From: an uncultured Methanosarcinales archaeon
GTDB lineage: Archaea; Nanobdellota; Nanobdellia; Woesearchaeales; GW2011-AR4
DNA length: 64,000 bases
Assembly (NCBI GenBank): GCA_964585935.1
Contig: CAZPFO010000002.1
Coordinates: 7,465-71,464, forward strand
Reading direction: 5' to 3'
Shown: positions 28,300-53,667 of the stretch, piece after piece
Layout: each line of letters begins with the position of its first letter
Position numbering within the stretch: position 1 is the stretch's first letter
The notes under the pieces: model-generated
Databases searched by the model: none
What the model saw: only the letters and a program-made list of their open reading frames with translations
Told to the model about the DNA's origin: nothing
Position numbers and translations under genes: made by a program

Positions 28300-28690
28300 A
28301 ATTAAAGCACAGGCTTGGTCTATGGATGTGGCTTTGGCAGTCGTCATTTTCATAATAGCATTTTTTATCGTATACAGCATAGTTACAAACAAAACATCAG
28401 GAGATGTTTCTGATTTGTATGAGGAGGCAGAAAGAATCTCAAAAGAAGCGGTTTTGCAAAATTCCACTATCAGTCTGGTAAACGGCGAAAGCTTGAATGA
28501 AACAAAAATTAAAAACGTTTTAGGCCAAGATTATTCCGAATTAAAGCGAAAGCTAAGGGTAAACAATGAATTCTGCATTTATTTTGAAGATGAAAATGGA
28601 AATTTGATAGTGTTCCAGAACTCCTCAGATGACAATGCTTCTGGCATAGGCTCGCAGAGCATCAATATCAGCGGGATTGTGTGCAGTTAA
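28292..28690 (+). CDS. pilin-like protein with class-III signal peptide (GTG start)
   Basis: Using GTG at 28292: MIKIKAQAWSMDVALAVVIFIIAFFIVYSIV. This fits the KAQ...hydrophobic pattern shared by the downstream pilins. It overlaps the upstream stop. Confidence 0.45.
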   Translation: MIKIKAQAWSMDVALAVVIFIIAFFIVYSIVTNKTSGDVSDLYEEAERISKEAVLQNSTISLVNGESLNETKIKNVLGQDYSELKRKLRVNNEFCIYFEDENGNLIVFQNSSDDNASGIGSQSINISGIVCS

Positions 28691-28792
28691 TTGTCCTGAG
28701 CTAATGATCTGATAAAGGGGAATCAATGATTGAAAATTTAACCAATAAAAATTAACCTAAAATCAATAAAAAGGACTAGAAAAAAGAGGCAG

Positions 28793-29917: not shown

Positions 29918-30125
29918 GCTTATTATTAAAATTTAACCAATAAAAATTAAACCAAAATCAAAAAAAGAAACCATTAAAAAGTTTAATAATAAAAAATAAA
30001 ACAAAAAATCAATAAAAAGAACTAGAAAAAAATAAAACAGAAAAAAAGATAAGCTATTCAAAGGTTAATTGGCCAGCAGGGAAAATTTAAGTTGGTCAGA
30101 ACTTGCCGGCAATATTCAAGTCAAG

Positions 30126-30680
30126 ATGATTAAAATCGGTCAAAAAAGAAGATGGGGGGCAAACAAAAGGGGTTATTTTTTTGTTTTGGATGCTTTGCTT
30201 GCCCTTGGGGTCCTGGTTATGGGAGTTAGCCTTCTCCTAGCTGCTTATACGAGAACGCCGGAAAAAGGGCAGACAACAAATCTGGCAGAAGATGTACTGG
30301 ACTTTTTTGCAAAAACAAAAATAGAGGATTTCAACAACCCTTATTTTGGGCCTTCAGGCACTTTGGTGCGGGAAGGGTATATCAAGGATGAAAAAAAGAC
30401 ACTGCTGCAGCAACTAGGGGAGTTCTATGTTAATGGTGACCTTGATACTGCGGAAAAACTAATAACAAACGTGACTGAAAATCTAATCCAGGTCCAGTAC
30501 AAATATGAATTTTCGATTGAAGGTATAAGAGTATACCCTCAAAGCCCTTCTCAGGAGTTTTTAACATCAAAAAACAATGCAAAAGTTTTGTTTCCATCAA
30601 AAAAATTCAGTTTTGGGACAATAAACAATACCCTGGATTTATTTGGACCTTATGAGGTAGAGGTTTTAGTATGGCAGTAA
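30126..30680 (+). CDS. pilin/pseudopilin-like protein
   Basis: From ATG 30126: MIKIGQKRRWGANKRGYFFVLDALLALGVLVMGVSLLLAAY. A basic stretch is followed by a hydrophobic helix with an acidic residue near +5/+6. Confidence 0.45.
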   Translation: MIKIGQKRRWGANKRGYFFVLDALLALGVLVMGVSLLLAAYTRTPEKGQTTNLAEDVLDFFAKTKIEDFNNPYFGPSGTLVREGYIKDEKKTLLQQLGEFYVNGDLDTAEKLITNVTENLIQVQYKYEFSIEGIRVYPQSPSQEFLTSKNNAKVLFPSKKFSFGTINNTLDLFGPYEVEVLVWQ

Positions 30681-31654
30681 GACATAATAAAAAAGGAGTA
30701 TTTTTTACCTTCATAGCTATCCTTCTGGTAATGGTTCTTATGATGGTCTTTAATCCACAAACAGAGACGAGCTTTGATAAAGATTTTCCAAGCTTAAAAA
30801 CAAGAGTATCAAAAATTGACAATTTTATAACAGAGTTTGAAGCAGTATATCTTGAAAGAATATTGCAGAGTGCAACATATAAGGCCCTAATATCATTAAC
30901 TTATTATATGGACCAAAGGGATAGTTTTCTCACAGATTTGCAAGGGGATTTTAAGGAGGTTGTATTGTTTGGGACTATAGAAGGAGGCACAAAAATTGAC
31001 GACATTACCGGAGAAGATATCATGAAGAACAGTACGCTTCTGAACTGGACTGACAAAATAAAAGCGATTGCAAAAGACAATCTGAATATAGACATGAACA
31101 TTACAGTAACAGATGTTTCTATTAACCAATCAACACCATGGTTGGTTGATGTAATGCTCAGCCTGGACTATACGGTTTCGTCGGAAACAGCATTCTGGAG
31201 AAGGGAAAATGTCCTGATAAAGACAAAGTTAGGCACAGGCAATCTTTACGATCCTTTGTATTATGTAAACACAGACGGGGTTTATGAAAAGAAAGTTGTG
31301 CAGACTAATATAAGATTAGGGGAATGGAATGCAACAGCCTTAAAACAATTCATAAGAAATGACACATATTTCCGATGGCAGGGCACTAATGCCTCGAGCT
31401 TTTTAATGAGATTCACAAACACCTTTGAACCTTCACAGTGTTGCGGCATTGAATCTGTTGTTAACCCGAATAATATAGCTCCTTCTGACGTGATTGAAAG
31501 CTATGTTGATTATCACTTCTGGAATGATACTTACGAAGACCAGTGTGAAAAACTATACAATATAACGGAAATCTGGGATGAATTTGATGGATTTAAGTTA
31601 GATTTTGATTATACTATAAAATATAATGTAACAGGCGGGGAACGAACCTGTTAA
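30671..31654 (+). CDS. pilin-like protein (large, class-III-like N-terminus)
   Basis: MAVRHNKKGVFFTFIAILLVMVLMMVF... Many N-x-T/S sequons in the body, consistent with an archaeal surface glycoprotein. Confidence 0.45.
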   Translation: MAVRHNKKGVFFTFIAILLVMVLMMVFNPQTETSFDKDFPSLKTRVSKIDNFITEFEAVYLERILQSATYKALISLTYYMDQRDSFLTDLQGDFKEVVLFGTIEGGTKIDDITGEDIMKNSTLLNWTDKIKAIAKDNLNIDMNITVTDVSINQSTPWLVDVMLSLDYTVSSETAFWRRENVLIKTKLGTGNLYDPLYYVNTDGVYEKKVVQTNIRLGEWNATALKQFIRNDTYFRWQGTNASSFLMRFTNTFEPSQCCGIESVVNPNNIAPSDVIESYVDYHFWNDTYEDQCEKLYNITEIWDEFDGFKLDFDYTIKYNVTGGERTC

Positions 31655-31714
31655 ATGATACCACTCTTGAAAAATAACTAAAGTTTTTATATAGATTGCC
31701 TCTTTAGATGAGAC

Positions 31715-32167
31715 ATGGTTACAAAGAGCACTATCCTACAGACCGCGGCAGACCAATTAGTTGATTTTGTCATGAGCAAAGAAAAAGTCACGATAGAAGA
31801 GACAGCAAAAAGATTGAAGATACCCACAAAAACGGTTCAGGCATTGGTTGATTTTTTGGTTGAAGAAAAGGTGCTGGGCATAGAATATAAATTTACAACG
31901 CCTTATATTTATTTAAGCAAAAAAGACTCAAAAGAGCATTCCTTAACAAGAAAAAAAGAAGCGCCGGTTTTGATTTCAAAAGAGGAATTTTATGAAAAAT
32001 CAAAATCAAGAGATATATCCTACCAAAAGATAGGAGGCTTATGGAAAAAATACCTTGAAAAGCAGTTAGGGGGTGTGAGGGAGCAATTTTTTGAAAGAGC
32101 AAAAGAAAAAAAAATACATCCTGAAAAAATAGAAGGGTTATGGCAGAAATACCTCACTTATCTATGA
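31715..32167 (+). CDS. hypothetical protein, possible N-terminal winged-helix, internal KIxGLWxKYL repeat
   Basis: N-terminus IEETAKRLKIPTKTVQALVDFLVEEKVLGIEY is wHTH-like. KIGGLWKKYLEKQL and KIEGLWQKYLTYL are repeated. Confidence 0.35.
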   Translation: MVTKSTILQTAADQLVDFVMSKEKVTIEETAKRLKIPTKTVQALVDFLVEEKVLGIEYKFTTPYIYLSKKDSKEHSLTRKKEAPVLISKEEFYEKSKSRDISYQKIGGLWKKYLEKQLGGVREQFFERAKEKKIHPEKIEGLWQKYLTYL

Positions 32168-32183
32168 GGATAGAGCAACTAAA

Positions 32184-33236
32184 ATGGACATAGACGAATT
32201 TTTGGATAAAGAGGAAGGTTCGCTTACAGGAAAGGAACCTGTAGAAGATAAAAAAACTGCAGAAGAAGGGCAGGAGATAGAAGAGCCTGTTATAGATGAG
32301 GAAGTATCTCCGATAATTGTTAAAGGGTACAAGGGCATTTTGGAAGAGATAAGCAAGTGTATTGAAAAAAATGATTTAATACAGGCAGAAAAGCTTTATT
32401 CTAAGCTTTGGCTTAAAATAACTGAGGATAAATTTACCTGGCAACAAGGAATGTATGATGACTTAATCCATATAAGCAACAGGCTAAAGGGCTCTGTAAA
32501 CAACCTGCAAAGCGAAACAACAGCAAAAATAGACACTATTCGCAGTTTGATAGTGGGTGTGAGGAAGAGCCTGAAAGAAGGGAAAGCTGAATCTGCTTTA
32601 ATTGCTTACTCAGAGATGATAGATGTTTACAACAAGATTCACTCCCAATTCTCTATGGAAAAAAAAGTGATTTATATAAATGAGATATTGCCATTATACT
32701 GGGAACTAAAGGACAGGGTGGAGAAGGTATTCTCCCAGAATTTCAATTTTGAGCTATCCCGCATTAATAATCTTATTCAGTCAACTAAAATAGCATTGCA
32801 AAAACATAAAGTTGAAAAATCAGCACAACTTTACAAAAACTGCTTCGATGGGTATAATGCACTGCCAGGTGGCTTTTTTCTTGAAAAAATAGAATTAGGC
32901 GCTAAGATTCTGGAACTTTACAAAGAGATGACAATTGTTCTTGAAATAGGGGATTTGAAATCCAGACTTAGGCTTGGGATGGGAGATGCTGGCAAAAGAA
33001 AGTATAGCACAAATATTCCTGCAAGGAGTGCAGTAGTACCGGGGAGACCGCCACTGCCTAAAATAGCCGGAGCACCACCTCTGCCAAACAATCTCAAAAG
33101 GTCTATTTCCCCTGAAATGCCAAATGTGGCTGCAGAAAGCGCTTCAAAAAAAAATTTAAAAGGGGAATTGATAAAAAGAAAAATAGGGAGCCTGTTGTCC
33201 AAGCGCAATAAAAGCCACATAAAAGAAGGCAATTAA
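32184..33236 (+). CDS. hypothetical alpha-helical protein with proline-rich C-terminus
   Basis: Acidic N-terminus, a long helical body, and C-terminal PGRPPLPKIAGAPPLP. It sits directly upstream of the secretion ATPase. Confidence 0.35.
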   Translation: MDIDEFLDKEEGSLTGKEPVEDKKTAEEGQEIEEPVIDEEVSPIIVKGYKGILEEISKCIEKNDLIQAEKLYSKLWLKITEDKFTWQQGMYDDLIHISNRLKGSVNNLQSETTAKIDTIRSLIVGVRKSLKEGKAESALIAYSEMIDVYNKIHSQFSMEKKVIYINEILPLYWELKDRVEKVFSQNFNFELSRINNLIQSTKIALQKHKVEKSAQLYKNCFDGYNALPGGFFLEKIELGAKILELYKEMTIVLEIGDLKSRLRLGMGDAGKRKYSTNIPARSAVVPGRPPLPKIAGAPPLPNNLKRSISPEMPNVAAESASKKNLKGELIKRKIGSLLSKRNKSHIKEGN

Positions 33237-33333
33237 GATCTATAGTATAATTTAAGAAGAGTTCGTTATTTTTGATGTTCGAGTTTATACATGCGCTGAG
33301 TGGAGGGCATTCTCAACAAAAAGGGTGTATTGA

Positions 33334-34809
33334 TTGCAGGAAAAAATCATAGAATCTTATGAACTTTTGGTCAATGATATAATTGTAGATGTCGTGATTA
33401 AATATGTCGAGGGGGAGGCTGTGCCCTTATACACTATTTCTATTACAAACATCACTGATACGACTAAAATAGTCCTGGAGAAGATTAGGGAGGAATTTGT
33501 AGCAGAAGAAACAAAAGATCTTGCAGTAGGCCCTGAAGGCCTTATTGTTAAGGATATCCAAGAGCAGTTTAGAAAAAAAATATTAAAACTTTTAAAAAAA
33601 TATTTCCCTAATGCGGATAAAAAAACAATGGATATGCTTGTTAATTATGTCCTGCAGCAGAATATAGGATTGGGCAATATCGAGATATTATTAAAGGACA
33701 TAAACCTTGAGGAGATTGTGATAAACAGCGCTACAGAACCGCTATGGGTTTACCATAGAAGATATGGATGGCTAAAAACAAATGTTAAAGTGCCGAATGA
33801 GGCCAGAATCAGGCACTATTCCTCAATCATTGGAAGGGATGTTGGGAAGGAGATAACAGTCCTGAACCCATTAATGGATGCTCATTTGAAAACAGGAGAC
33901 AGGGTAAATGCAACCTTGCTTCCTATTTCATCAAAAGGCAATACAATAACCATAAGAAAATTTTCAGTAAGGCCCTGGACAATTACTGATTTTATTAAAG
34001 ACAATGTTGTGTCATACGAGGCTGCTGCCTTGCTTTGGATGGCTGTGCAGAACGAGCTGTCAGTTCTAATCACGGGAGGTACAGCTTCTGGTAAAACTTC
34101 TATGCTTAATGTAATCTCAAATTTCTTTCCCCCTAACCAGAGAATTCTCAGCATAGAGGACACAAGAGAGCTTCAATTGCCCAGCATACTGCACTGGGTT
34201 CCTTTGGAAACAAGGCTGCCCAACCCGGAAGGGAAAGGGGGAGTGAGTATGCTTGATTTGATTGTCAACTCATTAAGAATGAGGCCTGACAGAATAATAG
34301 TTGGAGAAATCAGGCGTAAAAGGGAGGCGGAGGTCCTGTTTGAAGCAATGCATACAGGCCATTCTGTGTATGGAACTTTGCATGCGAATAATGCAAGGGA
34401 AACAGTAATAAGGCTTACAACTCCCCCTATTGACCTGCCAAAAGCAATACTTTCTGCATTATCCTTAATTGTTGTTCAAAATCTCAACAGAAGAACAGGG
34501 AAGAGGAGAATGTTGCAGATAGCGGAAGTTTTACCAAATGGCGACCCCAACGTTCTAATGCAGTTAAATGCCCATAAAGGGCGTTTGGAGAAGGTTAATG
34601 AACCCAAGGCCATAATGGAAACCTTAAATCTTTACACAGGCTTTTCAAAAGAGGAAATAAATAAGGATTTAAAAGGAAAGGAAAAGATACTTCATTGGAT
34701 GGTGAGAAAAAACATTAATGATATCAATAAAGTAGGCCTTATTATGTCAAAGTATTATCTCGATAAGCCATTTTTAAAAGAAAAAGGGGTGGAAAAATCG
34801 CAGATATAG
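33334..34809 (+). CDS. type II/IV secretion ATPase (FlaI/ArlI/VirB11/TadA family), pilus assembly ATPase
   Basis: Walker A GGTASGKTS, Walker B/Asp box RPDRIIVGEIR, His box MHTGHSVYGTLHANNA. The track start is TTG at 33334. Confidence 0.85.
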   Translation: MQEKIIESYELLVNDIIVDVVIKYVEGEAVPLYTISITNITDTTKIVLEKIREEFVAEETKDLAVGPEGLIVKDIQEQFRKKILKLLKKYFPNADKKTMDMLVNYVLQQNIGLGNIEILLKDINLEEIVINSATEPLWVYHRRYGWLKTNVKVPNEARIRHYSSIIGRDVGKEITVLNPLMDAHLKTGDRVNATLLPISSKGNTITIRKFSVRPWTITDFIKDNVVSYEAAALLWMAVQNELSVLITGGTASGKTSMLNVISNFFPPNQRILSIEDTRELQLPSILHWVPLETRLPNPEGKGGVSMLDLIVNSLRMRPDRIIVGEIRRKREAEVLFEAMHTGHSVYGTLHANNARETVIRLTTPPIDLPKAILSALSLIVVQNLNRRTGKRRMLQIAEVLPNGDPNVLMQLNAHKGRLEKVNEPKAIMETLNLYTGFSKEEINKDLKGKEKILHWMVRKNINDINKVGLIMSKYYLDKPFLKEKGVEKSQI

Positions 34810-34856
34810 CTCATTGGCTGGCTCATCTGTATCCTAACTTAAAAAAAGACCTTAGG

Positions 34857-35609
34857 ATGGCTCATATAAAAGAAGCCCCAGATGTGTTTATGGGCGGGAA
34901 CCTAAAAAAATCTTTGCTTTTTGCTTTCCTATCCACAGTTCTTTTTTTTTTCTTGCTCGACAAGGCAGGGGCGCCTAAATTTCTGCTTATAGTGGTTTTT
35001 GCAGTTATGTTTTTTGTCTTTTTCAACTTCTCTCTTCTAACTATACAGGGCAAAATAAAGAAGAGGGAAAGGGAGATAAACCAGGAAATCTTATTTGTAG
35101 GCCAGTATTTACTGGTAAAACTATATTCTGGAAAGCCAATCATGAATGCGTTGATGGAGACTGCCCAGAGCAGGGGCATAACAGCCAAATCTATCAAGGA
35201 GATAGTGGATGATATTGACACAGGGTCTCCTGTAGAGGTGGCGCTTGAAAATGCCGCAAACTATTCCCCTTCTGAAAAATTCAGGAAAATCCTCTTCCAG
35301 ATTAATAACGCACTGAAACTAGGCATAGACGTCAGTACCCCCCTGGAATCAGTGATAAGTGAGATAGAAGATGAACAAGAGATAGAAATAAAAAAATACA
35401 GCAAAAAACTCAACAGCATTGTAGTTTTTTATATGCTTGGAGCAATAGTCATCCCGTCTATAGGGATGGTAATGTTTATTGTTTTTGCAAGTTTCATAAA
35501 TTTTGCAATTGACAATGTTGTGTTTTTTGTTGTTTTATTTTTTATCGCGTTAATACAAGTGGTATTTATTTCATTGTTTAAATCAATAAAACCAATGGTG
35601 GAGCTATAG
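34857..35609 (+). CDS. T2SS-F domain membrane protein (FlaJ/TadB-like platform, part 1)
   Basis: TM helices flanking a cytoplasmic helical domain (LFVGQYLLVKLYSGKPIMNALMETAQ...). Confidence 0.55.
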   Translation: MAHIKEAPDVFMGGNLKKSLLFAFLSTVLFFFLLDKAGAPKFLLIVVFAVMFFVFFNFSLLTIQGKIKKREREINQEILFVGQYLLVKLYSGKPIMNALMETAQSRGITAKSIKEIVDDIDTGSPVEVALENAANYSPSEKFRKILFQINNALKLGIDVSTPLESVISEIEDEQEIEIKKYSKKLNSIVVFYMLGAIVIPSIGMVMFIVFASFINFAIDNVVFFVVLFFIALIQVVFISLFKSIKPMVEL

Positions 35610-35619
35610 GTGTTTTTTT

Positions 35620-36651
35620 ATGCCGCTTAAGTTAGTATTTTTAGACGAGTTTGGAAAAGCATTTGTCCCTAAGAAGGCTGTGCCTTATCTTAGGAAATAC
35701 CTGCTAAAAGCGAATATTTCTCCAGTGCCCTACAAATTTTTTGGAGCCTTGTTCTACCTTACAGCCTTGATTACAGCAATAATTTATATATTGTTTATCT
35801 ATCCGTTTTTAACACAATATCCTCCACTGGCCTTGCTCCTACTTTCTTTTTCATCCTGGTTTGTTACTCAATTCTTCTTTGCAGCTTTATTCATCATGCT
35901 TATTTATTTCTACCTTGATTTGAAAATTTACCGCAGGACAAAGCATCTGGAGGAGATGCTTCCTGATTTCCTGCAAGTAGTATCCTCAAATTTAAAGGGG
36001 GGAATGTCTTTTGAGAACTCATTATGGGCTGCAATAAAACCCAGGTTCTCTATCCTGGCAAACGAGATGGCAGAAGTGTCAAAAAAAGTTATGACTGGTT
36101 ACGATGTTGACAAGGCTTTGATAGAGTTATCAGAAAAGTACAACTCCACTACCCTAAAGCGCGCTGTTGACCTTATAATAAGCGAGTTAGAAAGCGGGGG
36201 CAATATAGCAGAATTGATTGATAAGGTTGTCGAAAATATGAAAAGGACTAAAAATTTAAAAGCTGATATGGTTGCATCCGCTACTTCCTATATAATCTTT
36301 ATTGGGGTGATAGTAGTTCTGATAGCTCCATTGCTTTTTTCTCTTTCATATACTTTATTGATTGTTGTGTCTGGCTTTATGTCAAAGATTTCAAGCGCTA
36401 CACAAAATGCCCCCAATATACCATTTTCATTCGGCCAGGTATCGGTTGACCTGGAAAGTTTCAAGATATTCTCATATTTAGCAGTTTCTGTCATCGCGCT
36501 TTTTTCTTCAATGATAGTAGCTATAGTTGAGAAAAATGATATCAGGGGGGGCATTAAATACATACCCATGTTTTTGGCTGGCTCTCTGATTTTTTATACT
36601 ATATTCATGAATGTGCTGTCACTTTTATTTTCGGGTTTAGCTCCCGCTTAA
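35620..36651 (+). CDS. T2SS-F domain membrane protein (FlaJ/TadC-like platform, part 2)
   Basis: LEEMLPDFLQVVSSNLKGGMSFENSLWAAI...ALIELSEKYNSTTLKRAVDLIISELESGGNIAELI is a classic GspF/TadC cytoplasmic domain, flanked by TM helices. Confidence 0.7.
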   Translation: MPLKLVFLDEFGKAFVPKKAVPYLRKYLLKANISPVPYKFFGALFYLTALITAIIYILFIYPFLTQYPPLALLLLSFSSWFVTQFFFAALFIMLIYFYLDLKIYRRTKHLEEMLPDFLQVVSSNLKGGMSFENSLWAAIKPRFSILANEMAEVSKKVMTGYDVDKALIELSEKYNSTTLKRAVDLIISELESGGNIAELIDKVVENMKRTKNLKADMVASATSYIIFIGVIVVLIAPLLFSLSYTLLIVVSGFMSKISSATQNAPNIPFSFGQVSVDLESFKIFSYLAVSVIALFSSMIVAIVEKNDIRGGIKYIPMFLAGSLIFYTIFMNVLSLLFSGLAPA

Positions 36652-36666
36652 ACGAAACATTTAAAT

Positions 36667-36942
36667 ATGATCCAGATAGAGAATAATGTAAAAAGAGGTA
36701 AGAAAAAAATGGAGCACCATCGTCATAAGCTTTTTATGGGGATTACGTCTATAGTTATATTGATTTTAGGCCTGATCTTCGGCGTTTTCTTGGTTTCAAA
36801 TAATAACGGCCTTATCAGCATAGACGGCATAAACTTCGCTTTATTGCTGACTACAATAATACTGCTCCTTATGAACGGGGGCTTGATTTTAGAAATGAGG
36901 GATATTTTAACTGAAAAAACAAAAAAATCCAAACGCAAATGA
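36667..36942 (+). CDS. small hypothetical membrane protein
   Basis: Two TM helices with basic termini. ATGA overlap with the next pilin gene. Confidence 0.35.
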   Translation: MIQIENNVKRGKKKMEHHRHKLFMGITSIVILILGLIFGVFLVSNNNGLISIDGINFALLLTTIILLLMNGGLILEMRDILTEKTKKSKRK

Positions 36943-37442
36943 TATTGACGATTAAAAGCAGGGGTAAAGGCCAGATAGCATTGGAATTCCTGACTACATA
37001 CGGCTGGGCATTTCTGGTCATTATAATAATGATATCTGCTTTGGCTTATTTTGGAATCTTAGACCCGAGCAAATTATTGCCTGACAGGTGCAACTTCGGC
37101 ACTGAGATCGGGTGTGCGGATCATCTGCTTGATGCAAGCGGCGATAATTTCAGGTTGAGATTGAAGAATAATGTTGGCGAGATTATAACAGTTTCCGGTA
37201 TTTCCTTAAGCAGTCAAACAGCTACATCATTTACCTGTAGTTCGTTCGATTCCGGAAATCCTTCAAATTGGAAAAGCGGGAATATAGAAGACCTCTCATG
37301 GAGCGGCTGCACCTGGAGTTCGGCGGGATTCGAGCCCGGCAGCAAAGCCAAAATAGAGGTAAAAATAACATATAACAAGGTCAAAAGTGGAGCAAGCTAC
37401 CCCCATGATGTCCATGGCGAGGTTTTAGCAACAGTAGGCTAA
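36939..37442 (+). CDS. type IV pilin-like protein (class-III signal peptide, QxxLE[FY] type)
   Basis: MILTIKSRGKGQIALEFLTTYGWAFLVIIIMISALAYFGIL: KG then QIALEF with Glu+5. Confidence 0.7.
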   Translation: MILTIKSRGKGQIALEFLTTYGWAFLVIIIMISALAYFGILDPSKLLPDRCNFGTEIGCADHLLDASGDNFRLRLKNNVGEIITVSGISLSSQTATSFTCSSFDSGNPSNWKSGNIEDLSWSGCTWSSAGFEPGSKAKIEVKITYNKVKSGASYPHDVHGEVLATVG

Positions 37443-37624
37443 TTTTACTTTTTCTGTGTTGATAAGGTGAAAAAGGGAAAGAGTTAAATAGAATAAAAGA
37501 AAAAATTAAGATTATCAATAATAAAAATAATCAAGATTTAATAAAATTATTAGTAAGAATTAAACAATAAATAAAAATTATCAATAAGAAATTATCACTA
37601 ATAAAAATAATCAATAAAAAACAA

Positions 37625-37860
37625 ACCAATGAGTGCACAAACAGTGATTCCTTGGTTGTGAGTGTTTATGTGCGGTCGTTTTTTTATTTTAAAATCCTAA
37701 AAAATCAAAGATTTTTGGGACACCAAAAATTCTGAAGGAATTTTTTAGTGTTTTAAAACAATTGAAAAAATAAATAAAAAACGCTGCTGGAAAACGAGCA
37801 AATAATTGTGAATGTGGAACATGAATAATGATTAAATATTTAAATGATAGAAATTGATTA
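37625..37860 (+). repeat. conserved upstream module, copy 1 (blocks A, B, C), preceded by ATCAATAAAAA-type repeats from about 37500
   Basis: Block A CCAATGAGTGCACAAACAGTG..GTTGTGAGTGTTTATGTGCGGTCG plus T-run at 37625-37690. Block B AAAAACGCTGCTGGAAAACGAGCAAATAATTGTGAATGTGGAACATGAATAATG at 37776-37830. Block C ATTTAAATGATAGAAATTGATTAA follows. ATG of the pilin gene is at 37888. Confidence 0.7.
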
Positions 37861-37887
37861 AAATACTGATTAAAAAAGAGGTACAAA

Positions 37888-38370
37888 ATGGGCAATAGAA
37901 AAGCTCAGGCAGCGCTGGAATTTCTTACTACATACGGCTGGGCAATTCTGGTTATATTGATTACGATAAGCGCGCTTTATTACTTCGGAATCTTTGATTT
38001 TACCAAATATCTTCCTCAGGAATGTAATTTCCCGCCGCAATTCAAGTGTATTGACTTTAGCATGATAGATGAAGGAGGAACTCAGGAGATAAGATTCCTG
38101 CTTTTGAATAATATTGGGGAGGAGGTTTATGTAGAGGGATTCGATATAACGAATAATGCAGATCCGCCTCTGGAATGTACAGGGCCAACAAACACTCCTG
38201 AGTGGGTGAGTGGTGAAGAGAAGGATTTTGTATTTACCAACTGCCAATATGGAGTGTTTATAGAGGGAGAAAGAATTGAAGCCAAAATAAATTTTACATA
38301 CTATGCTCCTCTTACGCCTTCTCAACCAAGACATACTGTAAGAGGAAAAATAACAGGCACAGTAGGATGA
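37888..38370 (+). CDS. type IV pilin-like protein (class-III signal peptide)
   Basis: MGNRKAQAALEFLTTYGWAILVILITISALYYFGIF. Confidence 0.75.
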   Translation: MGNRKAQAALEFLTTYGWAILVILITISALYYFGIFDFTKYLPQECNFPPQFKCIDFSMIDEGGTQEIRFLLLNNIGEEVYVEGFDITNNADPPLECTGPTNTPEWVSGEEKDFVFTNCQYGVFIEGERIEAKINFTYYAPLTPSQPRHTVRGKITGTVG

Positions 38371-38816
38371 AAGCACAATCTGCCTTGGAATATCTGATGG
38401 TCGTAGCACTGACGCTAATGATAATTGTACCTACAACTTACTTGTTTTATAGCTATTCAAAACAATCGACAGACCAGCTGATTTATCCCCAGATAAATGG
38501 TATAGGAAGAGAAATTATAAGCACTGCAGAATCGGTTTATTATTCTGGCGAGCATTCAAGAATTGTCATGGACATCAACATGCCTGAGAAAGTCAATGAT
38601 GTTTATATCCTTGACGAGAGGGAGCTTGTTTTTGAGATTGAGGGTGAATCAGGAAACAATGAAATGGTTTTTTTCTCAGATGTCAACATAACCTCTGATT
38701 CAGATTCGTGCACTACAGTAAAATGCTATGTAAATATATCGTCTTCTGGAATAAAAAAAGTAAAGATAGAGTCTATCAACCAAGGCAGAGAGGTTTTGAT
38801 TAATAAAACAGGATGA
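38367..38816 (+). CDS. pilin-like protein (class-III signal peptide)
   Basis: MKAQSALEYLMVVALTLMIIVPTTYLF; ATGA overlap with the upstream pilin. Confidence 0.6.
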   Translation: MKAQSALEYLMVVALTLMIIVPTTYLFYSYSKQSTDQLIYPQINGIGREIISTAESVYYSGEHSRIVMDINMPEKVNDVYILDERELVFEIEGESGNNEMVFFSDVNITSDSDSCTTVKCYVNISSSGIKKVKIESINQGREVLINKTG

Positions 38817-39814
38817 TCAAACCATACAAAAAAGCCCAGTTTGGAATAGAATTCGTCATACTAATCACTTTTATGCTCATAGTATTTCTTGGGTTTTTTG
38901 GCATAATCACATACAAATTGGCTGATCTGGAAGAAGAGGGAAAGCAGCAGGCAGCAGCAAATATAGCTTTATTGGTGGATAATGAAGTAAAGCTGGCTAA
39001 ATCCTCTAATAATGGCTATGAAAGGGTTTTTGAAATTCCTAGTAAAATAGAAGGCAGTGATTATAACATAAGCATTATTGGTAATAGGGAGGTTGTTGTT
39101 GCTTACCCTGGGTATGAGCATATTTTGTTTCTGCCTCCGGGTGTTGAAGGAAATGTAAGCAGCGGCCTTAATAATATTACAAAAACAGAAGGCATTGTAT
39201 ATCTTCAGGGTATTACTCCGGAATGTAACAATGGAGAGGATGATGATGGCGATACTTACTTAGATTCGGCTGATCCAGGCTGTTATATTAATTGTGATTA
39301 TGTAGATGCTGGTAATTTTAGAAGGTATAGGCATGAAGCAGATAGCTGCAGTTGCAGCTCTGTAGGGCAGTGCTGCTCAGGCGCGGGCTTTGGATCTTAT
39401 TATGGCTATTTTGATGGTGATTGTGGCGGAGGCCAGTGCTGGTCAGCATGCTCTATTGGTGAAAATGTGTTGTTGATAATGAGGAACCTTATTTCAAATG
39501 TTATCAGGTTTGAAAATGATGGGGATGTTATATTGAAAGGGCAATTTCAGGATGATGATCCTAACCCTCCTGTTTCAGATGATGATGAATTCATATTTAA
39601 GGATAGAAATGGAATTACTGTTGCAGTGATCAATTTAGGGTCTGGAGATATGTTCATAAATGGAAGCAAATATGAAAACCAGCCAGCATTAACGCCTTCT
39701 CCAACAAGCAATGATTTCATTGTAAAAGACTCTAGTGGAGAGGTGATGTATTACATTGATGAGACTGGAAATCTTTATTTAAAAGGGACTTTAACAGACA
39801 ATGGAAATCCTTGA
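38813..39814 (+). CDS. pilin-like protein with Cys-rich C-terminal domain
   Basis: MIKPYKKAQFGIEFVILITFMLIVFLGFFGIITY, plus a C-terminal cluster of about 14 Cys (CNNGEDDDGDTYLDSADPGCYINCDY...CSCSS..CCSG...CGGGQCWSAC). Confidence 0.6.
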   Translation: MIKPYKKAQFGIEFVILITFMLIVFLGFFGIITYKLADLEEEGKQQAAANIALLVDNEVKLAKSSNNGYERVFEIPSKIEGSDYNISIIGNREVVVAYPGYEHILFLPPGVEGNVSSGLNNITKTEGIVYLQGITPECNNGEDDDGDTYLDSADPGCYINCDYVDAGNFRRYRHEADSCSCSSVGQCCSGAGFGSYYGYFDGDCGGGQCWSACSIGENVLLIMRNLISNVIRFENDGDVILKGQFQDDDPNPPVSDDDEFIFKDRNGITVAVINLGSGDMFINGSKYENQPALTPSPTSNDFIVKDSSGEVMYYIDETGNLYLKGTLTDNGNP

Positions 39815-39952
39815 ATAGAAAAATAAACAATTGAAAAAAAAGCCAATGATAAAAATCAATGAAAAATTCAATATTTAATAAAATTATCAATGAAAAAATA
39901 ACCAATAAGAAAAAAATTCAATAAAAAAATACCAATGAAAATTAAAAAAATA

Positions 39953-40140
39953 ACCAAGGAGTGCACAAACACTGCTTCCTCAATGGTGAGCGTGTATCTG
40001 CAGTCATTTTTTAATTTTTGAAAATTTAAACAATTTAAAAATAAATAAAAAAACTCAGATGATGAAAGCGCAAACAATTGTGCATGTGGAACATAAATAA
40101 TGGCGGAAAATTTAAATGGTAAAAATTGATAATAAAAATT
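39953..40140 (+). repeat. conserved upstream module, copy 2
   Basis: Block A GGAGTGCACAAACACTGCTTCC..GGTGAGCGTGTATCTGCAGTC plus T-run. Block B AAAAACTCAGATGATGAAAGCGCAAACAATTGTGCATGTGGAACATAAATAATG at 40047-40105. Block C AATTTAAATGGTAAAAATTGATAA. ATG at 40188. Confidence 0.7.
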
Positions 40141-40187
40141 TAAAAAATTGATTAAAAAATAATTTAAAATAAATATTGAGGTGAAAA

Positions 40188-41693
40188 ATGAATAAAACAA
40201 AAATAAAGAGAAGATATGGTAAAAAATGCATGGGTGTTTTAAATAAAAAAACTGCATTGAATTCTTTTTTTGCCTCATTTTTAAAGTTCAGCATAGCGGT
40301 AGCTCTGTTGTTTGTAATTGCCTTGTTTGTTACTGCAGGAGATGTTATAATCGAGAACGGCAAACTGAATGTAAACAACAGCTTTTATGTTGATGGTGAT
40401 GGGAATGTAGGGATTGGAACATCGCCGGGTTCAAAATTACATATAAGACAGAGTGTTGATAGTAATGTGGGTGGGTTTATGATACAAGATGTTGGTGGGG
40501 CTAATTTTAGGATTTGGAAAGATTCTGGAAACACTTATTTTTATAGAGGGCCAACACTTAATTTAATGACTTTTAATGATGCAACAGGTAATGTTGGCAT
40601 TGGGACGACGAGTCCTACTAAAAAATTACAGATTCAAGGCGGCAATGATAACGGTATTTTGATTACTGATGCAAGTGATAATAATAGGGTTATTTTAGCT
40701 CCTGATGGTGATGGTGATGGGGAAATTTCTTTGTATGATCAATCAACAGTATTAAAAGTATTAATTAGAGCTAGTGGAGATTCTTTTTTAGATGGGGGCA
40801 ACGTCGGAATTGGGACGGCGAGTCCTGGGGCACCCCTTCATATTAAAAGAGATAGTAGTTTGAGTGCCACGCAACATCTAATAATTTCAAATACAGATCC
40901 AACAAATGGCAATGCCGCATATATAAAGTTTCTTGGTTCAAGTGTGGTTAATTATGGTGATATAGGTACAGAATTTGTAGATCGCACAAGCGGTTCAGAG
41001 GACGGAAGTCTTATTTTTAGTACACGTGTTAATGGGGCGATGGCAGAGGGGATGCGAATTCATAACGGCAACGTCGGCATTGGGACGGCAAACCCTCAAG
41101 AAACGCTCCATGTTCGTGGCTGGATTATGACAGAGACAGCAGCCGCAAATCCGAGCGTGCATTTTAAAGACTCTACTTCTGGTCAAGTCTATACTCTACA
41201 GATAGACAGCAGCAACAATAATTTTCAGTTATATGACAATACTGCAGGCCAATCGCGTATTGTTGTAAAAACCGATGGCAATGTCGGCATCGGAACAACT
41301 AACCCAGATCATGACCTGGAGATTGGCACTGGAACCTATTCAGAGATTGACGCAGGTGAAGCACAATTCACCACAGGTTCGTCTAAAGAGTACAAAGAAA
41401 ACATTCGGCCGATAGCAGTACAAAAGATACTTGATAAAATCTCTACTATTCCTGTAACTACTTATGATTTCAGAGAAGAATATTGTGATAGTGCAGATGA
41501 TAAATGCAAAAATAAGCTGGGCCTGATAGCAGAAGATTTTCATGTGATCTTCAAAAGAGGTTCTGATAAGGAGATTAATGGACAAGAAGTGCAAATGGCT
41601 TTATGGCTTGCTGTTCAGGAGTTAACCAAAGAAAACCAACAACTAAAATCAATCATCTGCCTTGATTATAAAGATGCTGAGATTTGCACTTAA
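40188..41693 (+). CDS. tail-fibre-like repeat protein with C-terminal peptidase S74 (intramolecular chaperone) domain; N-terminal signal/anchor
   Basis: Five repeats of the G-N-V-G-I-G-T-(T/A)-(S/N)-P type (DGDGNVGIGTSPGSKLHI, TGNVGIGTTSPTKKLQI, GGNVGIGTASPGAPLHI, NGNVGIGTANPQETLHV, DGNVGIGTTNPDHDLEI). The C-terminus SSKEYKENIRPI...IPVTTYDF...LGLIAEDFHVIF...ALWLAVQELTKENQQLK matches the S74 SDxRxKxNI / coiled-tail pattern. Confidence 0.7.
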   Translation: MNKTKIKRRYGKKCMGVLNKKTALNSFFASFLKFSIAVALLFVIALFVTAGDVIIENGKLNVNNSFYVDGDGNVGIGTSPGSKLHIRQSVDSNVGGFMIQDVGGANFRIWKDSGNTYFYRGPTLNLMTFNDATGNVGIGTTSPTKKLQIQGGNDNGILITDASDNNRVILAPDGDGDGEISLYDQSTVLKVLIRASGDSFLDGGNVGIGTASPGAPLHIKRDSSLSATQHLIISNTDPTNGNAAYIKFLGSSVVNYGDIGTEFVDRTSGSEDGSLIFSTRVNGAMAEGMRIHNGNVGIGTANPQETLHVRGWIMTETAAANPSVHFKDSTSGQVYTLQIDSSNNNFQLYDNTAGQSRIVVKTDGNVGIGTTNPDHDLEIGTGTYSEIDAGEAQFTTGSSKEYKENIRPIAVQKILDKISTIPVTTYDFREEYCDSADDKCKNKLGLIAEDFHVIFKRGSDKEINGQEVQMALWLAVQELTKENQQLKSIICLDYKDAEICT

Positions 41694-41709: not shown

Positions 41710-43617
41710 TCAAACATAAGGTATATCGTGGTGGAATTTAATTCCGTAAACATAAACATAATTCCAGAACAGGCCTTGTTTTCTTGTTACAAAAACACTG
41801 AAGCCGCATTCCCTGAATATCTTGGATATTTCCTGATCAGAGCTTAGCCATGCAACATTAGGTATTAGCTTGAAAAAGTCAACATAGTCGACAAAAACAA
41901 TTTTTCCTCCATAAGGCAGCAATTCCCTCATCTCTCTTAAAACTTTCTTAACATCCTGCAGATAGCCCATCATGCCCATGCTCACGATTGAGTCTACATG
42001 GGGGATGTCAGGATGGACTCTGTTAATCTGGTGCTTATCATGGATGATAATGACATGCATATGCCCTTCTTTGACGAGCCTTTTCTTTGCTATAATCAGG
42101 TCATTTTCTGACAAGTCAGTTGCATAAATCCTGCCTTGCGGCTTAACTTTTTCTGCAAGCTGGAGAGTTAAAGTGCCAACAGAACACCCAAACTCAAGGA
42201 TTGTTTTGTTTCTTACGTCCCCCAATAACTTAAGAATTTCGTCCCTTACCCCCTTTGGCAGGATCATTTTTTCTGTCAACAGCGTTAAATATGCCAGAGA
42301 ATTGTTTACTCTTACTATTGCATCAGGATTGTAATAGAGGACCAGCAAAAGGTAAATTGGTATGCCTACAAATATAAAAGATATCGCCAGCACCAGAATA
42401 TTAAATGCGCCCTCTACCTGAAGAAGCCACACTGCAACTAAAGAAAGCATAAACAAAGTGATAAGCAGGGAGCCGGCTTTTCCAAAAGGGGCTTTAAATG
42501 GCCTTATTATATGGGGTTTTTTTAACCTTAAAATCCAGACAGCCAAAATTGTAAATATATACATCACTATCCCTAATGGCAGCAGAAGGCTCAGCAAAGT
42601 TTTGTAATTTCCAAAAGCCATTGCAAAAACAATTAATGATACTATTGCCTGGAATATTATTGCCTTGTGAGGTGTATGGAATTTTGGATGTATGCTGCTT
42701 AGCTGCGCTATAAATAATTTGTCTCTTGATAAGGCAAGGATAAGCCTAGGCAAAGCAACTATACCTCCTGCTGCAGAGCCTACAAGGGCAAAGAAAACGC
42801 CAAAATTGATAATTTTAGTGGCTGCCTCGCCAAAGATAACGCCAAAAACAGAGGACAAAGGAGTGTTTAATCCTATTAAAATACTCCAGGGTATTATCCC
42901 TAGTGAGACTATGACTATTGAAATCCCTAAGATGCCTGTTAAAATGGTTCCAAGAACCAAAGCAAGGGGTATAGTCTTTTCAGGATTCTTGATCTCTTCA
43001 GCAAGATATGTAGCTGATTCCCAGCCGAAAAAACTTTCTGCAATAAAAAATATTGTAACAAAGACAGGCAAATAACCATGAGTAAAAAACGGCGTTAGAT
43101 TGCTAATATCCATGTAAAAGACTCCTGGCAGAATAATCGATAATAAGATAGTTATTGATACTCCTGCAAGCAACACTAGAATAAATCCGCTGGCTTCTAT
43201 TCCGACGTAGGCTACAAAGTTTAATGCCAAAATAAGCAATATGCTTATCCCAATTTTCAATAATATCTGGGAGGGGTCTGGAATCAAATAATTAACAGCA
43301 GCTACAACAAGCAATGCCACTGTCAAATTCCCCACTAACCACGCAACCCAGCCAACCATAAATGAAGTAAACCTTGAATATGTTTGTTTGCTGTATTCAT
43401 AGACGCCGCCTGCACTTGGAAACATAGACACTAACTCGCCAAAAAACGTGCTTATGTAAACAGCAAAAACTGTTAATATGACCCAGGAGAGTATTGAAGA
43501 ATTGCCGGAATAAGAAGCGCCTATAGCAGAGCCAAAAAACATGCCAGTACCCATTATAGTGGCGACTGCCAAAGCCAATACAGTCCAAAATCCCAGAACC
43601 CTCTTTAACTCAGCCAT
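41710..43617 (-). CDS. fusion protein: APC-family amino-acid permease (N) + class-I SAM-dependent methyltransferase (C)
   Basis: N-terminal roughly 440 aa has about 12 TM helices with APC-like composition. The C-terminal roughly 190 aa has MTase motif I ILEFGCSVGTLTL and downstream motifs (IYATDLSENDL...VDSIVSMGMMGYL...GGKIVFVDY). Confidence 0.7.
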   Translation of the reverse strand: MAELKRVLGFWTVLALAVATIMGTGMFFGSAIGASYSGNSSILSWVILTVFAVYISTFFGELVSMFPSAGGVYEYSKQTYSRFTSFMVGWVAWLVGNLTVALLVVAAVNYLIPDPSQILLKIGISILLILALNFVAYVGIEASGFILVLLAGVSITILLSIILPGVFYMDISNLTPFFTHGYLPVFVTIFFIAESFFGWESATYLAEEIKNPEKTIPLALVLGTILTGILGISIVIVSLGIIPWSILIGLNTPLSSVFGVIFGEAATKIINFGVFFALVGSAAGGIVALPRLILALSRDKLFIAQLSSIHPKFHTPHKAIIFQAIVSLIVFAMAFGNYKTLLSLLLPLGIVMYIFTILAVWILRLKKPHIIRPFKAPFGKAGSLLITLFMLSLVAVWLLQVEGAFNILVLAISFIFVGIPIYLLLVLYYNPDAIVRVNNSLAYLTLLTEKMILPKGVRDEILKLLGDVRNKTILEFGCSVGTLTLQLAEKVKPQGRIYATDLSENDLIIAKKRLVKEGHMHVIIIHDKHQINRVHPDIPHVDSIVSMGMMGYLQDVKKVLREMRELLPYGGKIVFVDYVDFFKLIPNVAWLSSDQEISKIFRECGFSVFVTRKQGLFWNYVYVYGIKFHHDIPYV

Positions 43618-50465: not shown

Positions 50466-50511
50466 AAAAGTTGTTCTAAAAATCAATAAAAAATTATCAA
50501 TAGTATAATTT

Positions 50512-50680
50512 ATCATTAGGTGCACAAACACTGCACAATAAGTTGTGAGCGTGTATGTGCAGTCATTTTTTTATTTTAAATATTTAATAACAAATAAAAA
50601 AACTCAGATAATGAAAGCACAAATAATTGTGACTGTAGAACATAAACAATGATTAGAAATTCAAATGATAAATTAAAATA
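50512..50680 (+). repeat. conserved upstream module, copy 3
   Basis: Block A TAGGTGCACAAACACTGCACAATAAGTTGTGAGCGTGTATGTGCAGTC plus T-run. Block B AAAAACTCAGATAATGAAAGCACAAATAATTGTGACTGTAGAACATAAACAATG at 50596-50650. Block C ATTCAAATGATAAATTAAAATAATAAAATTGATTAA. ATG at 50721. Confidence 0.7.
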
Positions 50681-50720
50681 ATAAAATTGATTAATAAATT
50701 AAATTCTAAATTAAAGTAAA

Positions 50721-52613
50721 ATGAGCGAAATAATCAAGGAAATTATGCAGAATCTTCCAAGGGAGAAAATATCTGCAGCGAATTTTGAAGGTGCTAATAT
50801 TGTTCTTTATACAAAGGACAAGGATTTTTTTCTCAACAACAACGGCATGATCAAGGAAGTAGTTGACAGGATAAAGAAAAGGGTGGAGTTAAGGCCGGAT
50901 CCTGCAATAACAATGGATATGGAAAAGGCAGAAAAAGAGATTAAAAAGATAATCCCTGAAGAAGCAGGAATTGATGAAGTCATATTTGACCCTCAGAGAA
51001 GCAGAGTTATCATAGAGTCTGAAAAACCTGGATTGGCCATAGGAAAGCAGGGAGCAATTTTGAGAGATATAAGGGCAAAGACATTATGGGTGCCTTTAAT
51101 CAGGAGAAAGCCCGCTATAAAGTCAAAGATTATTGAGAATATAAGGGCTGTCCTTTATCAGAATTCTGAGTATAGGAGAAAGTTCCTTGATAAAGTAGGC
51201 CATAGGATTTATGATGGGTGGGTGAGGGAAAAGAAAAATGAGTGGATTAGAGTTTCGTATCTTGGCGGAGGAAGGCAGGTTGGAAGAAGCTGCTTGTTTT
51301 TACAGACACCTGAATCAAGAGTCCTGCTTGATTGCGGGATTAATGTGGCTAGTGATGACAAGGCTTACCCTTATTTAGAAGCGCCTGAATTTGATATAAA
51401 CCAGCTGGATGCTGTTATTGTGAGCCATAGCCATCTGGATCATAGCGGATTTGTGCCTTACCTGTTCAAGTTTGGGTACAGAGGCCCTGTCTACTGCACC
51501 GAGCCAACAAGGGATGTAATGGCCCTTTTAGCTCTAGATTTTATCAAGATACAGCGTTCAGAGGGAAAAGACCCTGTTTATGATGCTGAAGATATTAAAG
51601 AGATGGTAAAGCATACAATAACCCTGGATTATGATGAAGTAAGTGATGTAACGCCTGACGTAAGAATCACCTTGTATAATGCAGGCCATATTTTGGGAAG
51701 CTCTATGGTGCATCTTCATATAGGCAACGGGCTGCATAATCTTCTTTATACCGGAGATATGAAATACGGCAAGACAATGCTGCTGGAGCCTGCTATAACG
51801 CATTTCCCAAGGCTTGAAACATTGATGATAGAGGCTACATATGGCGCCAAAGAAAACGTTTTGCCTCCGCGGCACAAGCCTGAAGAGGAATGCAAGCAGA
51901 TAATCCAGGAAACTATCAAAAGAGGAGGCAAGGTTTTAATTCCTGTTCTTGGAACAGGAAGAGCACAGGAAGTCATGGTCCTGATAGAGAGCATGGTAAG
52001 AAGGGGGCTGATTGATAATATCCCTGTCTATATTGACGGCCTGGTGTGGGACATAACTGCAATACATACTGCTTATCCAGAGTACCTGAACAACATGGTA
52101 AGAAAATTAATATTCCATAAAGACCAGAATCCTTTTTTATCTGAGATTTTCAAAAGGGTCGGCAGCCAGAAAGAGAGGAAGGAGATCATTGAAGAAGGAG
52201 GACCTTGTGTTGTGATTGCAACATCAGGGATGCTGGTTGGCGGGCCTTCAGTTGAATATTTGAAAAATTTTGCAGACAATCCAAAAAATTCAATGATGTT
52301 TGTCTGTTATCAGGGTGAGGGCAGCCTTGGAAGAAGAATACAGAGAGGCGAAAAGGAATTTAATTTAGGAAGCGTAGCAAAGCCTGAGATGCTGAATATT
52401 AAGCTTGATGTCCATACAATAGAGGGCTTTACAGGACATTCGGGAAGAAATGAGCTGATGAATTTTGTTTCGAGATGCGAACCAAGGCCTAAAAAAATTA
52501 TTATAAACCACGGAGAAAACTCCAAATGTCTGGATTTGGCCAGTTCTTTGCATAAAAGCTACAGGGTTGAAACGAATGCTCCAAGGTGTTTGGAGACTGT
52601 AAGGATAAAATAA
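50721..52613 (+). CDS. archaeal CPSF1 / FttA (KH domains + metallo-beta-lactamase + beta-CASP)
   Basis: N-terminal KH repeats, HSHLDHSG zinc motif, and beta-CASP region; 630 aa, typical aCPSF1 length. Confidence 0.9.
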   Translation: MSEIIKEIMQNLPREKISAANFEGANIVLYTKDKDFFLNNNGMIKEVVDRIKKRVELRPDPAITMDMEKAEKEIKKIIPEEAGIDEVIFDPQRSRVIIESEKPGLAIGKQGAILRDIRAKTLWVPLIRRKPAIKSKIIENIRAVLYQNSEYRRKFLDKVGHRIYDGWVREKKNEWIRVSYLGGGRQVGRSCLFLQTPESRVLLDCGINVASDDKAYPYLEAPEFDINQLDAVIVSHSHLDHSGFVPYLFKFGYRGPVYCTEPTRDVMALLALDFIKIQRSEGKDPVYDAEDIKEMVKHTITLDYDEVSDVTPDVRITLYNAGHILGSSMVHLHIGNGLHNLLYTGDMKYGKTMLLEPAITHFPRLETLMIEATYGAKENVLPPRHKPEEECKQIIQETIKRGGKVLIPVLGTGRAQEVMVLIESMVRRGLIDNIPVYIDGLVWDITAIHTAYPEYLNNMVRKLIFHKDQNPFLSEIFKRVGSQKERKEIIEEGGPCVVIATSGMLVGGPSVEYLKNFADNPKNSMMFVCYQGEGSLGRRIQRGEKEFNLGSVAKPEMLNIKLDVHTIEGFTGHSGRNELMNFVSRCEPRPKKIIINHGENSKCLDLASSLHKSYRVETNAPRCLETVRIK

Positions 52614-53377: not shown

Positions 53378-53448
53378 AAAAATCAATCAATGTTAAAATA
53401 ATCAATAAAAAAAGAAATCAGGATAATCAATAAAAAACAAAAAAATTA

Positions 53449-53630: not shown

Positions 53631-53667
53631 CCAAATATTTAAATAAAAATCCTGTTTCTGCTTTTTC

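Follow-up and report, generated by a model that had tools for sequence, protein, structure and literature searches.

What is a protein built like a phage tail fibre doing directly behind the type IV pilus genes of an archaeal chromosome: is it part of that pilus, the leftover of a virus, or a surface structure in its own right? The question is raised by positions 40188 to 41693 of a 64,000-nucleotide stretch of contig CAZPFO010000002.1 (this whole stretch is called the window below), where a gene on the plus strand encodes a 501-residue protein, referred to here as the fibre. We consider it reasonably probable that the fibre is a stand-alone, homotrimeric, autoprocessed cell-surface adhesin fibre of the phage-tail-fibre/Bdellovibrio MAT (mosaic adhesive trimeric) type, carried as accessory cargo at the edge of the pilus operon. 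An initial annotation of this DNA had proposed a pilus-tip or cell-surface adhesin of phage origin; a surface fibre or adhesin is indeed the best reading, because the protein has the build of a tail fibre with an S74 domain, carries an N-terminal anchor, and has the Bdellovibrio MAT adhesins as its closest characterised relatives. The window itself is chromosome of a Woesearchaeota (DPANN) archaeon, a tiny organism of symbiotic type: its aCPSF1 is 87% identical to an NCBI Candidatus Woesearchaeota protein, and its archaeal markers comprise aCPSF1/FttA and a diphthamide-synthesis gene.

Architecture of the fibre and its S74 domain

The elements of the fibre gene are as follows.

40178-40184, plus strand: Shine-Dalgarno-like ribosome-binding motif GAGGTGA, read from the sequence
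40188-41693, plus strand: fibre gene with ATG start, 501 codons plus stop codon
40188-40265, plus strand: Lys/Arg-rich N-terminal tail, residues 1-26, MNKTKIKRRYGKKCMGVLNKKTALNS
40266-40334, plus strand: hydrophobic helix, residues 27-49, read as a signal-anchor (Kyte-Doolittle plot and model helix)
40335-41378, plus strand: fibre shaft of five modules, residues 50-397
40401, 40587, 40797, 41067 and 41277, plus strand: module headers GNVGIGT-x(1-2)-P-x3-L
41379-41396, plus strand: candidate autoproteolysis site S398-S-K-E-Y-K403
41379-41690, plus strand: Peptidase_S74 intramolecular-chaperone domain, residues 398-501 (Pfam PF13884)
41580-41666, plus strand: long C-terminal helix, residues 465-493 (AlphaFold2 model)

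An identical protein is on record at NCBI (P0001, on an 86.6-kb contig). Since the GAGGTGA motif sits 4-10 nucleotides before the ATG at 40188, we favour the annotated start and judge the alternative start at Met15 less likely. The composition of the gene (GC 38.6%, GC at third codon positions, GC3, 29.7%) lies inside the range of its neighbours and is thus host-like.

The C-terminal domain carries the assignment. The Pfam Peptidase_S74 profile matches residues 398-455 over its positions 1-53 of 58, scoring 31 bits (E = 3e-7) where the cut-off is 22, and PHROG tail-fibre families match the shaft (phrog_9942, 5.6e-24; phrog_18345, 6.6e-16), in agreement with the annotation as a tail-fibre-type protein with an S74 domain. 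The domain stands at the end of the protein, right after the fifth GNVGIGT module, and is the most conserved part across the family. In an alignment of 79 sequences (A2; the window protein and 78 homologues) only five columns are invariant, and two of these are Ser398 and Lys403, so that the Ser/Lys catalytic pair expected of an S74 domain is present; its S-x4-K spacing equals that of the SDxxxK motif described for S74 domains (PMC10769870). The stretch SSKEYKENI begins at residue 398, and its S-S-K-E-Y-K motif has Ser, not Asp, at +1 after the catalytic Ser. From this sequence Ser398 is predicted to act as nucleophile, Lys403 is its predicted base, and the predicted cut falls between Gly397 and Ser398; residues 50-397 would be the mature ectodomain that autocleavage leaves.

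The AlphaFold2 monomer model reaches predicted local distance difference test (pLDDT) values of 87-96 in the C-terminal domain, which Foldseek aligns with the MyRF intramolecular chaperone auto-processing (ICA) domain (7dc3) at a probability of 1.0 and a template modelling (TM) score of 0.58-0.60. MyRF is a eukaryotic membrane-bound transcription factor whose cleavage releases a cytosolic domain, unlike the system considered here; the apparent likeness lies in the modelled fold of the C-terminal domain and, by analogy, may extend to trimerisation-dependent self-cleavage. The long helix at residues 465-493 fits the "coiled-coil" remark of the initial annotation. A phmmer search with the C-terminal 140 residues against PDB sequences returned no match even at E = 10, and NCBIfam holds no model for the fibre protein. 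Among phage S74 spikes and fibres, the K1F endosialidase (3GW6) and the T5 L-shaped tail fibre pb1 (4UW8) likewise carry a PF13884 Ser/Lys chaperone directly after a trimeric fibre or beta-helix; the fibre differs from them in not being in a virus, in having no virion-attachment N-terminus, and in the +1 residue noted above.

We also observe a terminal Cys pair, C-L-D-x6-C (residues 488-501, nucleotides 41649-41690), which recurs in P0008 and in open reading frames (ORFs) in L011 and L056. This ending is limited to a subset of the S74 subfamily and may give a disulfide loop on the released chaperone.

The shaft contains GNVGIGT five times (residues 72, 134, 204, 294 and 364), against 2e-5 occurrences expected from its composition. 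The description of five GNVGIGT-(T/A)-x-P repeats thus stands for the GNVGIGT core, but only four copies run on as T/A-x-P, the first reading GNVGIGTSPG and being one residue shorter. Because the copies are spaced 62-90 residues apart, we regard them as the heads of modules, each of about 45-95 residues, and not as a short-period tandem repeat. The variable modules at residues 80-360 are the least conserved part of the fibre.

Relatives, membrane anchor and proposed route to the surface

All methods applied against solved structures give the same relatives, namely the MAT fibres of Bdellovibrio bacteriovorus: Bd2133 (8ond) is found at 6.7e-10 by sequence and 2.9e-18 by profile, and Foldseek returns Bd2133 at 5e-7 and Bd3182 at 3e-5. 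MAT fibres, among them Bd2133 and, from the S74 subgroup, Bd3182, are surface-displayed adhesins, and S74 self-cleavage has been demonstrated for Bd3182 (PMC10769870). Like them, the fibre is a cellular, non-viral, phage-like fibre with repeated shaft modules bearing V-G-x-G...P-x3-L capping-loop motifs and, as in the S74 subgroup, a C-terminal S74 domain with an S-x4-K dyad; both belong to mosaic families, with module swapping among the relatives of the window fibre. The differences are equally clear. MAT proteins are typically ~1,000 residues long (the shortest 626-843), occur in 21 copies in the B. bacteriovorus genome, and begin with a signal peptide and a conserved, beta-rich anchoring domain of ~130 residues (PMC10769870). 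The window fibre, from an archaeon with a single membrane, is much shorter at 501 residues, is present as one copy in this window, borders a type IV pilus operon, and has a basic tail and transmembrane helix in place of the signal peptide and anchoring domain; most of its motif copies are one residue longer than the published consensus. From its sequence, the ~130-residue anchoring domain is probably absent, as only ~22 residues separate the helix from the first GNVGIGT.

The claim of a phage origin holds in part. By tblastn, 41 phage records match the fibre at 25-31% identity (E 2e-17 to 1e-9), and the tail fibres of cyanophages and pelagiphages (for example Synechococcus phages S-B28, S-TIM54 and S-CRES2) align over up to 84% of the protein, sharing homologous GNVGIGT-type shaft modules and in some cases an S74 end. 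These proteins are, however, virion components of bacterial viruses and only 25-31% identical, whereas the nearest relatives of the fibre, at 37-56% identity, lie on cellular contigs; a scan of IMG/VR with the C-terminal motifs of the subfamily gave 51 pattern matches, none of them a relative, and no phage genes occur among the window ORFs scanned.

The N-terminus reads MNKTKIKRRYGKK...NKK, followed by the hydrophobic stretch at residues 27-49. The best Kyte-Doolittle windows lie at residues 30-55 and the AlphaFold2 model places a helix at residues 23-47, in line with the hydrophobic anchor noted in the initial annotation, and surface display of the fibre would follow from this anchor. The basic tail (residues 1-26), predicted to be cytoplasmic by the positive-inside rule, would stay inside the cell, and the helix would fix the chain in the membrane, leaving everything beyond it outside. 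As in the S74 family, the C-terminal domain would then register three chains and nucleate folding of the intertwined shaft, and the Ser398/Lys403 dyad would cut at Gly397-Ser398 and release a 104-residue chaperone, following the S74 and MAT literature. This would leave a stable ectodomain of ~350 residues, whose length would be ~13-15 nm if the Bd2133 fragment is a guide. Its variable modules between the GNVGIGT loops may bind a ligand, most likely a substrate or a surface glycan or protein displayed by a partner cell or host.

Several points weigh against this reading. Trimerisation, cleavage, topology and ligand are all features that we infer, and contact with a host cell is hypothetical. 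The N-terminal half of the monomer model has pLDDT values of only 40-60, although low confidence in the shaft is to be expected when an obligate trimer is modelled as a monomer. An S-layer with a wide pseudo-periplasm, if present, might keep an anchored fibre of ~14 nm from reaching beyond it. Several homologues carry ordinary signal peptides, and the sequence V-T-A(49)↓G-D (the arrow marking the possible cleavage point) fits the -3/-1 rule of signal peptidase, such that the helix could be a cleaved Sec signal and the fibre a secreted one.

In this last alternative, which we regard as unlikely yet worth keeping in mind, the released trimer would rebind the S-layer or the pilus, or act at a distance. 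Besides the cleavage motif, it is favoured by K33, which splits the hydrophobic stretch and leaves a core of ~15 residues, and by the classical signal peptides of the close homologue P0002 and of most bacterial homologues. It would, however, require an unusually long n-region of ~33 residues with 9 Lys/Arg, and the AlphaFold2 model gives a continuous helix of 25 residues. The homologues P0003 and P0005 moreover have hydrophobic stretches of 17-22 residues with no obvious cleavage motif, and no retention domain like the N-terminal domain of the Bdellovibrio fibres is evident. Taking both sides into account, we prefer the membrane-anchored fibre.

The pilus operon and its variable 3' slot

Whether the fibre belongs to the pilus depends on the locus upstream and on the gene that bounds the fibre downstream, as follows.

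27268-39814, plus strand: archaeal type IV pilus locus, complete
28283, 28793, 36939, 37888, 38367 and 38813, plus strand: starts of pilin-like genes with a K-A/G↓Q...E class III signal
30069 and 30671, plus strand: starts of genes with K-R/K-G type signals
33334-34809, plus strand: T2SSE ATPase (Pfam T2SSE, 1.6e-39)
34857-36651, plus strand: two T2SSF membrane proteins (Pfam T2SSF, 1e-11 and 2e-12)
41710-43617, minus strand: convergent gene of 635 codons, amino-acid permease fused to a C-terminal S-adenosylmethionine (SAM)-methyltransferase (Pfam)

Between the last pilin-like gene (38813-39814) and the start of the fibre gene lie 373 bp, in agreement with the annotated placement of the fibre directly after the pilin genes. 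To compare this arrangement, we used 80 metagenomic pilus loci (ATPase 53-78% identical) and three other Woesearchaeota contigs, 83 loci and 883 kb in total; 26 of the 80 pilus loci reach at least 6.5 kb downstream of the ATPase. Across the pilus loci the gene order 30069-30671-31715-32184-ATPase-T2SSF-T2SSF-pilins-38367-38813 is conserved. Both boundaries of the slot that holds the fibre gene recur in L062 and L069, the nearest of the informative loci: the 38813 homologue on the left and, on the right, the permease-methyltransferase gene, kept at the same position in both loci and followed by Dph2. The slot content differs: the window has the S74 fibre, L062 has a CarboxypepD_reg protein and a secreted protein of 243 residues that contains a single GNVGIGT motif and ends in a Cys-rich segment, and L069 has two small minus-strand ORFs which, judged by their sequences, look like a PIN/AbrB-type toxin-antitoxin pair. 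Loci L058-L060 (aCPSF1 87-92% identical) are uninformative on the pilus and fibre region, as they are syntenic only to the right of the phosphoribosyl pyrophosphate (PRPP) synthase gene, from window position 45515 onward.

By tblastn and by a hidden Markov model (HMM) built from alignment A2, an S74 domain occurs in none of the 83 comparison loci. The pilin signals of the locus read KA↓QAALEF, KG↓QIALEF, KA↓QSALEY and KA↓QFGIEF, and the fibre N-terminus, KKTALNSFFASF, has no Q at +1, no E at +5 and no such prepilin signal (K-A/G↓Q-x-x-x-E). Because the slot varies, the comparison loci hold no S74 domain, and the protein lacks a prepilin signature, the fibre is not a pilus subunit but accessory cargo, its gene occupying a variable slot at the operon's 3' end.

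These results bear directly on the idea that the fibre forms part of the type IV pilus encoded upstream or docks at its tip, which we consider quite improbable; of its forms, non-covalent docking is the one that we keep as an alternative. The fibre gene does come next after the pilin genes, in the same orientation, and the gene for P0003, the closest full-length relative, stands in L002 straight after those for a T2SSE ATPase and a pilin-like protein. A homologue of the 38367 minor pilin in L086 (41% identity over residues 1-148, E = 3e-31) is fused to a fibre-like GNIGVGT segment at its C-terminus, with the motif GNIGVGTTEPDSKL, and P0242 shows the same fusion; the Bdellovibrio authors, too, have raised an interplay of fibres with type IV pili as possible (PMC10769870). 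However, unlike at least six genes of the locus, the fibre has neither a class III prepilin signal nor a pilin N-terminal domain, and the absence of S74 from the comparison set and the unrelated cargo in L062 and L069 speak against a conserved pilus component. A hairpin with a T-run also lies between the operon and the fibre gene, and the pilus already has adhesin-bearing pilins. The product of 28793-29917 carries a Laminin_G_3 domain (E = 2e-23), and that of 38813-39814 is 333 residues long as against 128-134 in L062 and L069, with a Cys/Asp-rich C-terminal extension of ~200 residues. These two products make stronger candidates for adhesins on the pilus than the S74 fibre does.

The spacer between the last pilin-like gene and the fibre gene had been described as a copy of a conserved upstream module, with these elements and further copies.

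39815-40187, plus strand: 373-bp spacer before the fibre gene, 76% identical to 37443-37887
37443-37887, before a plus-strand gene: copy before pilin gene 37888
50478-50722, before a plus-strand gene: copy before aCPSF1 (50721)
53334-53667, before a plus-strand gene: copy before the M24 peptidase gene (53668)
58640-58663, minus strand: partial copy
39960-40012, plus strand: conserved hairpin GTGCACAAACAC...GTGTATCTGCAG followed by T6
40071-40094, plus strand: conserved box CAAACAATTGTGCATGTGGAACAT, common to all copies

The module, made up of AT-rich AATCAATAAAAA-type repeats, the hairpin with its T-run and the conserved box, is real, and the pilus connection is what fails. As copies also precede aCPSF1 and the M24 peptidase gene, we reject it as a pilus-specific regulatory element and read it as a dispersed cassette of terminator/promoter type, not as the mark of a pilus regulon; for the same reason it is unusable as evidence of co-regulation with the pilins. 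The hairpin has three matches within 3 mismatches, where none is expected by chance, and a fourth copy, upstream of 37888, is visible only in alignment A3; RNAalifold folds the four copies into a 19-pair hairpin with almost no covariation. Together with T6, it would act as the terminator of the preceding pilin gene. The box shared by the copies, CAAATAATTGTGnnTGTGGAACAT, has five matches in the window, again with none expected by chance, and may be a promoter-proximal element. The module was not found by blastn in related contigs and has no Rfam match.

A prophage was the other context to consider. The other window ORFs scanned have pilus, biosynthetic, translation or housekeeping functions or match no family, and there is nothing viral-looking among them; genes for a capsid, portal, terminase, sheath, baseplate or integrase were not found in this set. 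ARAGORN finds no tRNA gene in the window, and Rfam at gathering thresholds gives no match there. We reject a prophage context because of the host-like GC and GC3, the non-viral neighbours and the lack of a tRNA gene in the window, and the prophage remnants that the initial annotation suggested looking for are thus not seen among these ORFs. That the fibre gene is a tail-fibre gene which comes from, or is still part of, an integrated archaeal virus, a tailocin or an extracellular contractile injection system (eCIS), with no role for the cell, is therefore very improbable, since the PHROG matches, the alignment with cyanophage and pelagiphage tail fibres and the variable slot, which would all fit it, stand against flanks syntenic with L062 and L069, an intact ORF with a conserved dyad, a transmembrane anchor that is not a virion-attachment domain, and the failure of the subfamily motifs to find a relative in IMG/VR.

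A mosaic family and its place in Woesearchaeota

The preferred reading, an anchored surface fibre, places the protein in a very large family. Its shaft module has 44,828 cluster representatives at E <= 1e-3 and 10,107 at E <= 1e-10. Many of the best-scoring shaft relatives (P0250-P0391) are giant proteins of 2,000-7,700 residues with 10-37 matched stretches each. In species-representative genomes the relatives are mostly bacterial (Thermoanaerobaculia/Acidobacteriota, Patescibacteria, Planctomycetes and Bacteroidia), and a few archaeal metagenome-assembled genomes (MAGs), of Woesearchaeota, Aenigmatarchaeota and nominally Methanosarcinales, have them too. One S74-encoding sequence of 32% GC occurs in both L010, a MAG labelled Methanosarcinales, and L011, labelled Patescibacteria. 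One of these MAGs, if not both, is therefore mis-binned, and we reject the Methanosarcinales label of L010 as a sign of a link to a methanogen host. In 54 genome loci with fibre homologues, most of them bacterial, no pilus ATPase was found nearby.

The closest homologues, P0002 (L001:4104-6194) and P0003 (L002:8001-9701), come from two Woesearchaeota strains and lie at a locus shared with the Woesearchaeota MAG contig L054. P0003 has the same basic tail and helix at its N-terminus as the window fibre. From one GNVGIGT motif to the C-terminus the two homologues are near-identical, and before that motif they are unrelated: P0002 begins with a Sec signal and extra modules and P0003 with the basic tail and transmembrane helix, and the genes upstream differ as well. 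Because the near-identity starts at the motif, modules are exchanged at GNVGIGT motifs, with the breakpoint at the motif itself. In the same locus, GyrB (L002:13701-17701; L054:4999-9891) is 1,630 residues long and has two intein insertions (Intein_splicing and LAGLIDADG matches).

Four related pilus clusters (L062, L066, L069 and L086) have, no more than 3 kb away, fibre-like proteins without an S74 domain, which belong to the same shaft superfamily, judged by the same PHROG families and a shaft HMM; this adjacency to related pilus operons is suggestive. Beside the pilus operon of L066 (2693-3889, minus strand), a fibre-like protein of 398 residues matches Pfam Shufflon_N (7e-10, residues 232-307) and shares a "GSSGLCIGxDCRTxWPS" segment with the 243-residue protein in the L062 slot. 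Shufflon_N is the constant region of the R64 PilV pilus adhesin. The PilV shufflon proteins are minor-pilin adhesins with exchangeable tips, and besides this match in L066 they resemble the minor-pilin family of the 38367 product (38367-38816), in whose members a conserved pilin part of ~150 residues is joined to exchangeable C-terminal modules. In L086:8227-9114 and P0242-P0247 the C-termini range from none to fibre-like GNIGVGT, VWA plus MopE, dockerin-like and Cys-rich modules, such that this family looks like a tip-adhesin scaffold. The S74 fibre itself, unlike PilV, has no pilin N-terminus. A shufflon recombinase or inverted repeats were not seen either, no search aimed at them having been made.

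We know of no cultured representative of the Woesearchaeota, and in the literature searched we found no description of S74/MAT-like fibres in DPANN archaea. The fibre adds a new archaeal (DPANN) member to the known S74/MAT-like fibres and is an ordinary member of its family; as that family is enormous and the biochemistry is predictable from known S74 fibres, it is a useful lead and not a surprise.

The comparison nevertheless places the adhesin diversity of this lineage in two spots: the pilus operon, at its variable end, and the minor pilins, at their exchangeable C-termini. A broader idea, which we put forward only tentatively, is that Woesearchaeota, and perhaps other DPANN and candidate phyla radiation (CPR) episymbionts, use mosaic phage-tail-fibre-like proteins (with S74 or other tips, and anchored, secreted or fused to minor pilins) as an apparatus for recognising partner cells, kept at the edges of type IV pilus operons and diversified by recombination at GNVGIGT-coding motifs. 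If this is true, such a repertoire would correspond, in archaea, to the MAT system of Bdellovibrio, with the window protein as its self-cleaving, membrane-anchored form. Little is known about the means by which DPANN archaea locate partner cells and stay attached to them. As a short fibre of phage-like build that is predicted to process itself, the window protein offers a concrete, expressible way into this problem, and in labelled form it could serve as a probe for the binding partner in environmental samples.

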